Below are positions 18,778 through 30,742 of a stretch of DNA of 39,987 bases, in pieces. Numbering within the stretch: the first letter of the stretch is position 1; every line of letters begins with the position of its first letter. The notes beneath the pieces are model-generated. The model saw only the letters and a list, made by a program, of their open reading frames with translations, made no database searches and was not told the origin of the DNA. Origin of the DNA: Eledone cirrhosa (lineage: Eukaryota); the NCBI GenBank assembly GCA_964016885.1, contig CAXHJY010001573.1, positions 1 to 39,987 on the forward strand, written 5' to 3'. The position numbers and the translations under genes are program-made.

Positions 18778-19188
18778 TGAAACTCTGACCCTATCCAGTT
18801 ACATAACATATTTCCTATTCAACAGCAAACAAGTAAGTGTAAAGAGAGAATATAAGAAAGCTTGACGAATACACCGGACCTGCATTAAATGGTTACTAAA
18901 CGGAACTAGTTGATTGACACAATCCGCCTGTCTATGTACACGTGTGTATATGTGTCTGTATATAAGTGGCTGTCAATGTGTACTGTATATGCGTGTGCAT
19001 ATATGAGCAGGTTTACAAGTCTCTTTTCCTTCTAATCTCCCCCACTTCCCCCCCCCCACTCTCTCCTCTCAGCATATATATATATATATATATATATAGA
19101 TAGTAATAATAATAATAATGAAGAAGACGAATTTTGTAAATATTGATATCTTTGTGACTGTTATATATATTTCAGTGGTATCGATATA

Positions 19189-19221
<33 letters not shown>

Positions 19222-19224
<3 letters not shown>

Positions 19225-19882
19225 GTGCGGATGCATTCATGTATATATGTGTGTGTCCGCATGTATCTGTGTGTTTCTAAATATATTGTTAATAACTCCC
19301 TCTGGTCGAGCAATCTTTGAAGTGTGGGGACAGCTGGAAAGCTTCCATTACTCATACTTCTCGCCTTCTTCACCACCTCTTCTACGGCCTCGATATAAAT
19401 ACCCCCTCCGCTTCCGTGGTATTTTCTTCGGGGTTATAAGAGGCTTAGCTCTGTTTCTCAACCGTTATATCGCGTGACTATCTCCCCCTCCGCCTTTTGG
19501 GATTCTTTCTCACGTCGTGTAGACGCGTTCTTGAGACTAGTAAAATGAGGTATCCTCTTGATAAGTCGGCAGACCTCGCAAGGACTCTATATCTTTATGA
19601 TATATTGTTTTTGTTTATGCCACGAAACTACGTAGTCGAGGAATTTAGGAGCAGTTTAGGTATGATACATTTTATTACTAATTATATCTAAATGTTTCTT
19701 CTCTCTTCATAATGTATTTTTAACTCTGATACTGGTTCAGTCTAGTTCAACTGAATTGGTCTGTCCCAGTCATTCATTGAGCAACATCGGTGAAGTTGGC
19801 ACCCTTAACTCACAGTTGGGTGCGGATGCATTCATGTATATATGTGTGTCCGCATGTATCTGTGTGTTTCTAAATATATTGT
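19222..19882 (+). mobile_element. Candidate retrozyme or Penelope-pLTR-derived element: 595-nt unit with terminal redundancy, inserted in (TA)n
   Basis: Direct repeats at 19222-19289 and 19817-19882 differ by one GT dinucleotide; (TA)n lies on both sides; there is an internal HHR and no credible ORF. Confidence 0.75.
19553..19642 (+). ncRNA. Type I hammerhead ribozyme motif with a U3-A8 covariant core and branched stem II
   Basis: Stem I TCCTC (19553-57) / GAGGA (19638-42); core TTGATAA 19558-64; stem II GT.GGCA / TGCC.AC with G-C at the base; GAAA 19624-27; palindromic stem III ACTACGTAGT 19627-36; GUC site with cleavage predicted after 19637. Confidence 0.8.
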
Positions 19883-20610
19883 ATATATATATATATATAT
19901 ACACAATATATTAACAAATGGAAACTATATTTATAAAACCATATTTATTTTGTTATACATATTTCAAGGGCCACCAAGGCAAATTATGGTGCGCTTTCAT
20001 CAGATAAAATACAATCCAGAATTAGTTTTATAAATAAATATTGACATACCCTGAAAAAAAGACAACCTTAACGGTTGGAGCTGTTGAGTGCTTCATATCA
20101 GTTATAAAAATGTTTTAAGCTTGTTGAGTCCCAACAAATTAAATATAACCTCTGCTTATATATATATATATATATATATATATGAATAAAACTAATATCG
20201 TCGAAGACAGGATACAGACAATCTCAGCTTATCAGTCAACCGCTAGAGATGCGTTGTTTCAGTACTTTAAGATCGATACAGCCGGCTCTAGTGCATAACG
20301 GACAGTAACAAATGGACAAAGAACAAGACGATAGTCTTAACGACTATTTACAAATAAAAGAAAATTCGCCACTAACCCATTTAGGTTTTGATAAAGATGC
20401 CTTTATTCCGAGAATCCTTATTCTTCGTTTGTATTTTATTTTTAAAGAGCATCTGATCCAGGGGCGGTGGAAGCATTTCTGAATAGGGTAAGGGGGTTAG
20501 TCAATTTAGTTGTAGTGGTTAGTTTAGCTCTTTGCTCTCTGAAATGGTCAGAAAATGTAATTTGAGTCCATGCAGGTCATAGTACTTTTACAGCTTTCAA
20601 TAATTATAAA

Positions 20611-24687: not shown

Positions 24688-24882
24688 CAGACCTGTCAAC
24701 TGCCTCCGTCCGACGGGGCGATCTCCTACCCACTTTGGGGTGGGTGAGAGATGTTTTCTCTTGTGAAAATGGGTATAGCTTTCATTATGTAAAATCTCCC
24801 CATTTTGCCTCATTTCTCCCCATTTTGAGGCACTGTTTTTCATGGCACTCCCCGTTTGGGTTTTTAGAGGTTGGCAGATCTG
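24688..24882 (-). mobile_element. MITE family M1, copy 2, with a perfect 6-bp TSD TTATCC
   Basis: TIRs CAGACCTGTCAAC / GTTGGCAGATCTG; TTATCC on both flanks. Confidence 0.92.
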
Positions 24883-24928
24883 TTATCCAAATAAATCAGA
24901 ATTTTTAAAAAAGCAAGTTCATTGTGTT

Positions 24929-25848: not shown

Positions 25849-26040
25849 CAGACCAGCCAATCTCTAAAAACCCAAATGGGGAGTACCATGAAAAAATGGA
25901 CCCCAAAATGGGGAGAAATTAGGTAAAATGGGAAGATTTTACATAATGAAAACTATACCCATTTCCACAAGAGAAAACATCTCTCACCTAGCCGAAAGTG
26001 TGTAGATCTCCCAATCGGACGGGGAGAGTTGACAGGTCTG
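25849..26040 (+). mobile_element. MITE family M1, copy 3
   Basis: TIRs present; flanks GTACAC / GTACAT. Confidence 0.9.
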
Positions 26041-26859
26041 GTACATATCTAGATGTACTCCTATGTGTTTCGTTGCTTTTTCTTCTAGAGGCATTTTACC
26101 AATAAGTCTTTGTTTCAAATAGCTCCAACCTTTTCTTTTTAACTATCTTAGTTGCTCGGTTATAATGCAGTTTTGCTGATAAGGTCCTTTAAGAATAAAT
26201 CAAGTTTCCCAGTATAAATCTTGCACATTCTACGATGTAATTAATTCTCTAGAAGGGCGGTTCCATTATTTTTGAGAGCAAAAATGTGAGGACAGTTGAT
26301 AGCCTTTTATTTCTTTATGTTAAAATTATTTTCAAGAACAAAGTGTAAGGTCAATTGATAGAGTTTAACGCCTCTCCATGCTTTTCAAATGTAATGAAAT
26401 CAAATATGTAACTAAGTTCTCAGTTTTTGACTTTGTGTTTTTATTTTTTAAAGTAATTCAATAAGAAATATAGTTCAGCTTGGTTAAGTTACACTTAAAG
26501 AAGTCTTCAGTATTTTTTACTATTCGTTTTAGAGATTGACTTTACAGAACTCGGATTGTATTTTTCGTTTTCATACTAGAAAACCCCGATTTTTCAACGT
26601 AAATGCTTAAAATATTAGTAACATGACCAAACGCCACAATAATTGCCATTTTCAATGTGAAACTATATTCAGGCGGGATTTCTATTACTTTTTGTCGGCG
26701 AAGAACATAACAACTTTGCTCAGATTCTACAGTTTGATTACATTCAATGGATAGACTGATCCAGAAACTATTGTAAATAGTTCCCTTTTGTTAGTTTCGG
26801 ATTGTATAAAGATATGTTTTTATCATAGATACAATGTTAGATATTTAATAATGTGGCTC

Positions 26860-28582: not shown

Positions 28583-28777
28583 CAGACCTGTCAACTCTCC
28601 CCGTCCGACGGGGAGATTTGCAATAGTCTTTGGGATGGGTGAGAGATGTCTTCTCTTGTGAAAACGGGTATAGCTTTCATTATGTAACATCTCCCCATTT
28701 TGCCTTATTTTCCCCCCGTTTTGGGGCACTTTTTCCATGGTACTCCCCGTTTAGGTTTTTAGAGGTTGGCAGTTCTG
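28583..28777 (-). mobile_element. MITE family M1, copy 4
   Basis: TIRs present; flanks TCTCAG / TTTTAG. Confidence 0.9.
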
Positions 28778-29875
28778 TTTTAGTGGATAAGAAGGAAAGT
28801 GTTGGCGAGAAATTTTATCGCAGTAATTTGTATAATTGCCTTCCCCAAAAGTGCCAATGAAAATAACCAAAGAAAACCAATGGCAAGAATTTAGGTTGGT
28901 GATAATGTTCAGAATGACGTCCACAAAAATTCTTCATAAATTGAAATTAGTCGAAGGGGCCAAAAACCTTCCTGCATTTGTTAACAACTCCTTCCCAAAA
29001 TTAAAAAAGAAATGTGTGGGGTTAATTTCAAAAAATTAAGAATTAATTTCACTGGGGTAAAAAAAACACACACACACAAGAGAGCTGGACAGCAAAAGGT
29101 CTTCAGAGAAGAAACCCCACTCAAGTGAGTATTTAGGCCCGTAACTTCTGAAAATAATTGTCGAACTTAAAGGGAATCTAATCGTTTTGGGAAGAATCTT
29201 AACAGTTACGGCTATGTTTCCAACTTACTAAACCACATCAGCCACAGAAAAACAAAAAAAAAAAAAGATGAAATTCTCACAACTGGAAAATCTTTTATCA
29301 TAAGTTTGCTGCAGCAGAGTTAGTCTAAAGCTAAACAACAAACTGATTCTACCATTCACTAGATTTAAGCTATTATCATAAGTTGGACAGATTTGCTGGT
29401 ACACACGGCAACAAGAAAAACAATCACCAACCTCTGTTGCAGTTTGTCATAGGTTTTACGGCTTTAGAGTGAAAATTGATGCATTTTAATGCACCATTGG
29501 TACTGGAGAGGCTTTCTGCGATAGAACTAAAGAGTCCCGTCAATGCTTTATCAGTTTTCATTCAAAGATAGTTCCCTATTAGAATGGGTTCCCCACGGTG
29601 AGGCATATGAAGCCAACGTTTCCTCCATTCGTTCCTTCTTTTGGTATGGATGTTATAATTAGACGCCCTTTAGTTGGAATGAACTCCGTACAGGGTGGAC
29701 CACCTGAAGGCTACCATTAGAGAGGTTGTCTACAGAAAAACGAAAAGGTCCCTTCTTCTCTGTACCATTTAAAATTTTTCTGAGTTACTGCTCTCCTATT
29801 TGAGTTATGTATGATATGGTTTATAAAAACTACGTCTCCTCGAGGTAATATTTGGGCTTAGACGTGCGTATGTAT

Positions 29876-30072
29876 CAGACTTGCCAACCTCTAAAAGCCC
29901 AAACGGGGTGTACCATGAAAAAAATGGACCCCCAAAACGAGAAGAAATGGGGCAAAATGGGGAGATTTTACATAATGAAAGCTATATCCATTTTCACAAG
30001 AGAAGACATCTCTCCCTCACCTCAAAGTGGGTGGGAGATCTCCCAGTCCGACGAGGAGAATTGACAGGTCTG
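29876..30072 (+). mobile_element. MITE family M1, copy 5
   Basis: TIRs CAGACTTGCCAAC / ATTGACAGGTCTG; internal sequence matches the other copies. Confidence 0.9.
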
Positions 30073-30742
30073 GAATATAAACATCAAATACATTGAAAGC
30101 TGAATTAACAATGTGAAGGCCGGACCCCTTGATAACTAACTTTACCTACCGTATCTCCGAGTCAGCCCTGAACGATCAGCACTATGATTGAAAACATGAC
30201 TAAACCAATTTTGTTAGTATATGAAGGGCTCCCAAGACAAGATGTGATCTGGATATTACTTATAGCAGATCGACTGTATTATCTATTGTACTCTTCCCTT
30301 TTTTTTTTGAGACAGTAGAGTTTGATTTGGCGGTAATATGGGTCACTATTTCTAGTAGGTCGAGTGATCACGTAGAAGCTCCCTCGTTGCCTTGTCCGAT
30401 TAGGGTTTTATTCGAGGGGGGGGGGGGCAGATTTAGCTTTCATTTCGATTGTTTTCATTGTAAACTTCAATAACTTTTTCTTATAACGAAATAAGTTGAG
30501 TCGGTTGCAAAAAAAGTCCATTTAAACTCTGTTCCTCTCATATATATAATAAAAAAAGACGATTTGTTATATCTTCATTGCGTTTATTGAGTAGTGACGT
30601 GCGTTTCGCTATTGATCAGCTCAAGGTTCGATCTGTATCGATCTGCCCCGGCTCCGAAATCAAAAGCTCGTCGGGCTTCTGTTGAGGTAATGACAGAATA
30701 TATATATATATATATATAAGAAAGAGAGAAAGTTTAAATATA

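Follow-up and report, generated by a model that had tools for sequence, protein, structure and literature searches.

Sister insertions of a hammerhead-bearing repeat family in Eledone cirrhosa repeat a single monomer

Insertions of a 595-nt non-coding unit in the genome of Eledone cirrhosa include two parent-daughter pairs in which variants carried by one unit of the parent recur in every pass of the daughter, so that a single monomer was copied more than once. The arms of these insertions nearly always stop at one of two 3' sites, A and B, and insertions with two inverted arms use one of each. From these sequences it seems probable that a Neptune-type reverse transcriptase copied a predicted circular RNA repeatedly into TA microsatellites, sister insertions repeating one monomer.

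The window copy and its family

The window is the whole stretch of DNA analysed, 39,987 nt of the forward strand of contig CAXHJY010001573.1. It holds one copy of the family, amounting to 1.11 turns of the unit, with the following features.

19184-19221, no strand: (TA)n target microsatellite, 5' side, from the sequence
19222-19882, plus strand: 1.11 units inserted as a single arm, truncated 5' at unit position 1 and with the 3' end at site A
19222-19289, plus strand: first copy of the terminal redundancy, putatively a second pass of the reverse transcriptase, from repeat comparison
19547-19577, plus strand: candidate pseudoknot, predicted from complementarity, of GAGGT (19547-51) with ACCTC (19573-77) of the helix II internal loop
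19553-19642, plus strand: type I hammerhead, built manually from the sequence and a pair list
19709-19717 (unit about 488-498), plus strand: 3' end site B, putative start of reverse transcription, from sister copies (78 of 179 arms)
19718-19882, plus strand: 165-nt B-to-A segment, from arm ends; counterpart of the Penelope "tail" as defined in PMC11167929
19817-19882, plus strand: second copy of the terminal redundancy, stopping at site A, from repeat comparison
19874-19882 (unit 62-72; also 19283-19293 in the first pass), plus strand: 3' end site A, used by this copy (92 of 179 arms)
19883-19901, no strand: (TA)n target microsatellite, 3' side, from the sequence

Much of what the preliminary description had seen in this island stands. 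The same 66-68 nt open and close it, the two copies agreeing at 97% over 68 columns (period 595, E 7e-27) with one slipped TG; both flanks are (TA)n; and there is no credible reading frame, the longest stop-free frame of the doubled unit being 87 aa and the longest starting with ATG 76 aa. Compared with its 595-nt subfamily, the copy shows two substitutions (19412 and 19460) and the one TG slip. The redundancy differs in extent from copy to copy, so the terminal repeat is not an LTR, and because 3' ends in the family are fixed and 5' ends variable, position 19222 is rejected as a unit junction and marks only the 5' truncation point of this copy.

A target duplication is unreadable at this locus within (TA)n. 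The left flank is unique in the assembly, where neither an empty site nor a duplicate locus was found, and the right flank (19906-20150) is itself a very high-copy repeat. A Pfam search of 12 of the 69 window ORFs returned nothing relevant. Elsewhere in the window, an ORF overlapping a tandem array of 16 x 66 nt (12583-13628) matches DUF6870 (E 3.5e-13, no single stretch passing), which is probably an effect of the repeat. A SINE-like dispersed repeat of 200 nt lies at 12258-12454, 24688-24884, 25849-26047, 28583-28779 and 29876-30079, on both strands and with 82-87% identity, and long palindromic stretches at 42-324 (98%) and 14007-14323 (78%) are possibly MITE-like or inverted insertions.

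The family is large and young. In the 3.0-Gb assembly, which is rich in TA microsatellites, a 24-nt hammerhead core pattern has 7,444 exact matches (control, 0); the first 100 matches represent 51 insertions, which scales to about 3,800 in all. We analysed 115 loci, a sample enriched for multimers: the 18 best matches to the window copy, 59 further fetched loci (50 by position on C1 and 10 best matches, less L073) and 38 matches to locus L104. A 93% identity cut dropped four of them and left 111 loci with 179 arms and 270 units. Subfamily periods range from 587 to 595 nt. The tandem multimers for which a genome search had been advised are present, arrays reaching 6.8 units per arm with a type I hammerhead in each unit. 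Period and ends are shared by an older subfamily with about 80% identity, which differs at 97 of 595 positions.

Several individual loci deserve mention. The longest insertion seen, L278 (G000:C7:38439123-38445604), has 11 units (6.8 + 4.2) with A/B ends; at L067 and L220, young copies sit beside or inside older diverged copies of the family; and at L073 (G000:C1:19618000-19626000) a two-armed insertion and its flanks occur twice, 2,554 bp apart, a pair that was not counted.

The one complete hammerhead placed mid-island by the preliminary description was confirmed by manual construction of the motif, though its core pair is U3-A8 where the canonical pair is C3-G8, and Rfam, at gathering and E-value thresholds, did not report it and gave only miRNA noise driven by the microsatellite. 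Stem I is TCCTC/GAGGA (19553-57/19638-42), followed by the core TTGATAA (19558-64), helix II (19565-19623; its closing pair is G10.1-C11.1, one C is bulged and the extension measures about 45 nt), GAAA (19624-27) and a helix III of two pairs with the palindromic loop TACGTA. The NUH site is GUC, and the predicted cut falls at 19637/19638, or unit 416/417. In the older subfamily, 0 of 50 core and stem positions are changed vs 97 of 595 overall; 25 of the 50 were fixed by ascertainment of the seed copy, and among the other 25 none is changed (P 0.007). Both motifs of the candidate pseudoknot are retained in diverged copies, with no covariation seen between them. The U3-A8 pair has been reported in Penelope-like hammerheads of Schistosoma, and short palindromic helices III have been associated with dimeric cleavage (PMC4209133). 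With only one hammerhead, the window copy would by itself release no monomer, and it is likely a dead-end product.

Fixed 3' ends and the genealogy of copies

Among the 179 arms, 92 end at A, 78 at B and nine elsewhere, and TA-rich DNA adjoins 164 of the 170 fixed ends. Free circular permutation of the copies, which had been expected of a circular template, is thus not what we see, as only the 5' ends vary. Fixed ends, or attachment to an RT/GIY-YIG ORF, had been named as the marks of an ordinary Penelope pLTR; the first holds in part, the 3' ends being fixed and the 5' ends not, and the second fails, with no such ORF attached to the unit in the window.

Both ends are fixed in 62 two-armed inverted insertions at the 111 loci, and of these 61 are AB, one is BB and none is AA. 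The older subfamily uses the same sites, all 15 of its two-armed copies that were readable by eye (29 loci) being A/B. Single arms were seen 29 times with A, as in the window copy, and 14 times with B. A monomer has one A and one B, which would account for each of two DNA ends taking one; the two 3' sites are putative starts of reverse transcription.

Copies within an insertion share their alleles. The arms of one insertion differ at 8 of 874 comparisons (26 polymorphic sites, 49 loci), whereas random pairing gives 21%. At sites with at least three passes, common alleles are present in all passes 143 times and in part of them 18 times. At locus L104, 7.6 units over two arms are near 100% identical (the next best among 40 scored loci reaches 98%), and C295A is in 8 of 8 passes, in both arms. 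The exact C295A pattern has 12 matches, seven in L104 and one each at five unrelated loci, which were rejected as parents of L104. A 23-nt deletion is present in both passes of one arm, its pattern having no other match.

For a test of parent and daughter we used the sublineage with the 6-nt deletion of L087 (34 matches, 15 loci, all fetched). In the first pair, the parent L087 carries a 1-nt deletion near 458 (one of five passes) and C110A (one of four) in a single unit flanked by two hammerheads, and the daughter L280 carries both in three of three passes and is otherwise identical (0/570). The 1-nt deletion has exactly four matches genome-wide, all in L087 and L280, and its presence in all three L280 passes means that one monomer was re-read. 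Through a nearby variant, C182G, the boundary of the monomer is narrowed to 183-457, a range that contains the cut at 416/417. In the second pair, T464C is in one of three passes of L283, between two hammerheads, and in two of two of L286, with no other differences (0/576); this pair is the weaker, since T464C recurs elsewhere (10 matches). T93C of L113 was dropped as a private marker on account of its 65 matches. Some observations run contrary: T450G is in two of five passes of L087, in two adjacent units; both arms of L278 have C241T, each in one pass; and the deletion is lacking in L289 although C110A is there, so that a two-step history is needed.

The two sites are only some 80 and 245 nt away from the 5' end of a cut monomer, whereas the arms of the position-sampled set have medians of 663 and 564 nt (values that ascertainment biases upward); copying must therefore run across the cut junction. 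The fact that 164 of 179 arms span the cut site was not counted as evidence, the loci having been ascertained through the hammerhead or long matches. Re-reading of a single monomer fits rolling-circle reverse transcription, and the genealogy and the fixed ends together support the earlier suggestion that a monomer was reverse transcribed for more than one unit length into a microsatellite.

A search of sequencing runs listed no RNA run with the repeat, and contigs from six runs of unrecorded kind were left out as evidence on expression; because the genomic units are tandem, reads across a junction say nothing about circles. From DNA alone, re-entry of a nicked monomer looks the same as copying of a covalent circle. 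The template might be a hammerhead-cut linear monomer, its ends held by stem I, which pairs across the cut, with the enzyme jumping from 5' end to 3' end each round; the parent-daughter, all-or-none and A/B data would fit equally. We think this improbable, because 5' ends are scattered over the unit with no excess near the cut (6 of 179 within 412-424, 3.9 expected), no recurrent indel is found at 416/417 in 22 loci, and covalent circles have been shown for related retrozymes (PMC7229834). Less probable again is an uncleaved linear read-through transcript of an array with two internal starts, as proposed for the Anolis element PAc, for which a Penelope-like protein in vitro used uncleaved RNA without need of the hammerhead and no read ends fell at the cut (PMC11167929). 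A minority of variants here are at intermediate frequency within loci, as such a template would allow; yet a linear transcript of the parent would transmit a mosaic, and L280 and L286 hold in every pass what their parents hold in one unit. Such a template would also offer many A and B sites, so that 61 AB insertions in 62 would not be forced by itself, and arms of up to 6.8 units also speak against it. Growth and homogenisation of arrays as DNA after insertion, by unequal crossover, slippage or gene conversion, is very unlikely, for while local amplification has been proposed (10.64898/2026.07.22.740005) and T450G in two adjacent L087 units may be one such event, the arrays are short, dispersed and fractional in length with fixed 3' ends, alleles are common to inverted arms, and rare alleles at sites with at least three passes (n=145) mostly sit in a single pass (127) or in every pass (11), few (7) falling between.

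Predicted RNA fold, candidate partner enzyme and possible editing

The plus strand of the unit is predicted to fold far more stably than its shuffles (z -7.7 linear; z -6.9 circular, over 40 shuffles), with an MFE as a circle of -182.8 kcal/mol against -133.3 kcal/mol for the minus strand, and the monomer is thus strongly self-paired, as in metazoan non-LTR retrozymes. Of the hairpins pointed out earlier, that at 19731-19770 is present in the predicted fold, while GCACCC/GGGTGC across the repeat junction is not favoured, its pair probability as a circle being about 0. The circle is predicted to pair unit 483-500, which includes site B, with the 3' half of the hammerhead. The active hammerhead fold is predicted to cost 8.0 kcal/mol in the circle and 1.1 in a local 107-nt segment, suggesting that the circle fold would block the hammerhead, a prediction without covariation support. 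Among 51 pairs altered in the older subfamily, 35 keep pairing (four by two-sided change) and 16 are broken.

A GIY-YIG search of the genome gave 10,596 candidates, of which 150 were scored and 50 loci fetched, 20 of them in full. These include long ORFs with a reverse transcriptase domain, DKG, a CX4CxxC linker and, at the C terminus, GIY-YIG, an architecture given for the Neptune and Nematis clades (PMC8557442); we call them Neptune-type by domain architecture. In this genome such elements occupy (TA)n tracts. U3-A8 hammerheads are present in several of them, and copies of the L152 family end 3' at two sites separated by 68 nt, with A/B use in three of three inverted copies. Several Neptune-type families have long ORFs (L152:1988-5781, L153:1275-4562, L154 and L167-L169), with U3-A8 hammerheads in at least three (L152, L168 and L169) and two 3' ends about 40-68 nt apart.

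No autonomous element homologous to the unit was found among the 50 GIY-YIG loci, and a short-helix-II pattern search for an autonomous partner matched only one deleted copy. What the unit has in common with the families at these 50 loci is architecture and the U3-A8 core, not sequence, so the partner is suggested by footprint only. Penelope-like ORF fragments lie near eight of 141 loci, and in four with mapped arms they are at least about 900 bp away. The family shows partial tandems, an inverted 5' arm, variable 5' truncation and two alternative 3' ends, all Penelope-like features, and since the Neptune-type elements show the same insertion footprint, its sequence places it among the metazoan non-LTR retrozymes and makes it a non-autonomous Penelope-like element. 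The retrozyme identity proposed earlier is therefore well supported, and retrozyme and Penelope pLTR are no longer alternatives, the insertion footprint being of Penelope type.

The changes among copies have a strand bias that may reflect RNA editing. On a parsimony tree of 76 locus haplotypes, limited to alleles in at least two passes and with little resolution, plus-strand changes number 45 A>G, 24 G>A, 12 T>C and 8 C>T, while A is the rarer base (133 vs 215 T). The signal lies in recurrent sites, A>G being involved at 13 of 17 sites with repeated changes and the same A>G recurring on separate branches; the recurrent A>G positions include unit 100, 163, 218, 259 and 547. Among unit-specific changes this bias is absent (13 A>G, 26 T>C), and the comparison of old and young subfamilies gives 19 A>G and 18 T>C. 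An apparent A>G excess among locus-private shared variants, 15:5 in a first sample, was 9:8 in a larger one and did not hold. Locus L100 has four rare A>G fixed in both passes, three of them within 16 nt of one hairpin, resembling an editing burst.

We consider ADAR editing the likelier source of this bias, with reasonable though not strong confidence. Selection for RNA pairing, which would tolerate A-U to G-U changes, or a polymerase bias is a distinctly weaker candidate. The pairing of 20 of the 28 A>G sites with U (A-U to G-U 20/83) would suit it, as would the even ratio in the private class; still, G-C to G-U, a change that pairing would tolerate just as well, is rare (2/74 vs 20/83, P 1e-4), the excess persists at predicted unpaired sites (13 of 20 events, hand-counted, P 0.004), and the recurrence on separate branches also argues against it. 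ADAR prefers a 3' G and disfavours a 5' G (PMC5663115); A>G sites are enriched for 3' G or C (19/28 vs 33/105, P 8e-4, a post hoc grouping), while the depletion of 5' G is not significant (3/28 vs 25/105, P 0.19), a point for the non-ADAR causes.

The process we favour, with a circular template, would begin with transcription of an array of at least two units, whose hammerheads would cut at unit 416/417 and free a monomer that a host ligase would circularise, by analogy with PMC7229834. The predicted circle fold would then block the hammerhead, and the circle may occasionally undergo A-to-I editing. A Penelope-like RT-GIY-YIG protein would break (TA)n DNA, and cDNA would begin at A, at B, or at both at once on the same molecule, where the ends are observed. 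Extension through 0.1-6.8 turns, with arms joined head to head, would give the structures seen; the window copy would be an A-primed single arm. A broader proposal, for which we would not claim even chances, is that an edited, hammerhead-excised circle with one A and one B primes both break ends, that this geometry explains tandem, inverted and tailed Penelope-like insertions generally, and that edits enter the germline.

Comparison with known systems

Several consequences follow for work on such elements. The family lets circular-template and uncleaved-multimer models be told apart by DNA, and its pairs favour monomer re-copying; the one-A-one-B rule sharply constrains the enzyme-RNA complex; in vitro work gains a substrate that is short and ORF-free, along with candidate partner proteins; and the A>G bias suggests that a mobile RNA has its sequence shaped by RNA editing. 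If the one-circle geometry is true, RNA edits would be written into the germline. Neither the A/B rule, nor re-copying of a monomer from parent to daughter, nor inherited retrozyme edits are reported in the literature found; subscription journals were largely outside its scope, and supplements (e.g. S9 of PMC7229834) and preprint tables may bear on the point.

Metazoan non-LTR retrozymes (Cervera and de la Pena 2020, PMC7229834; Li, Clavereau and Pollet 2026, 10.64898/2026.07.22.740005) share with this family head-to-tail units that are non-coding and hold a single type I hammerhead, a GC content below 50%, strong self-pairing, thousands of copies and Penelope-like elements in the same genome. 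The 595-nt unit, earlier thought unusually long, falls within the published range of 51-972 bp (10.64898/2026.07.22.740005). Unlike their canonical hammerhead, the one here has a U3-A8 core and a long helix II extension, and it is predicted to be blocked in the circle, where most animal retrozymes are predicted to have it free. The family is further set apart by its inverted two-armed insertions, which keep a strict A/B rule, and monomer re-copying, which both sources propose, here has parent-daughter evidence.

With Neptune-type Penelope-like elements (Craig et al. 2021, PMC8557442; Cervera and de la Pena 2014, PMC4209133) the family shares 5'-truncated partial tandems, an inverted 5' arm, an optional tail and (TA)n targeting, and with Penelope-like elements of Schistosoma and the L152, L168 and L169 families of this genome the U3-A8 hammerhead and palindromic loop III. 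It differs from Neptune-type elements in having no ORF, and no sequence homology to an autonomous family was found. Its 165-nt tail belongs to the repeat unit itself, whereas published Penelope-like tails are 30-40 bp and that of the L152 family is 68 nt.

The origin of tandem and inverted Penelope-like insertions has been called undefined (PMC8557442). A circular template with more-than-unit reverse transcription (PMC4209133, PMC7229834) has as its rival an uncleaved multimer (PMC11167929), the latter from in vitro study of PAc, a Poseidon element of Anolis (Frangieh et al. 2024, PMC11167929), whose protein cuts and extends both strands and uses two internal RNA starts that define the tail. 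The family resembles PAc in these respects and in its AT-rich target. In contrast to PAc, its putative start sites are AU-rich and resemble the target, and its two DNA ends take one site each, where PAc has no strand difference in start site. The PAc paper favours an uncleaved multi-copy mRNA, while the daughters described here repeat one monomer. The family is thus a known kind of element, and the genomic evidence that it brings to an open mechanism is unusually direct.
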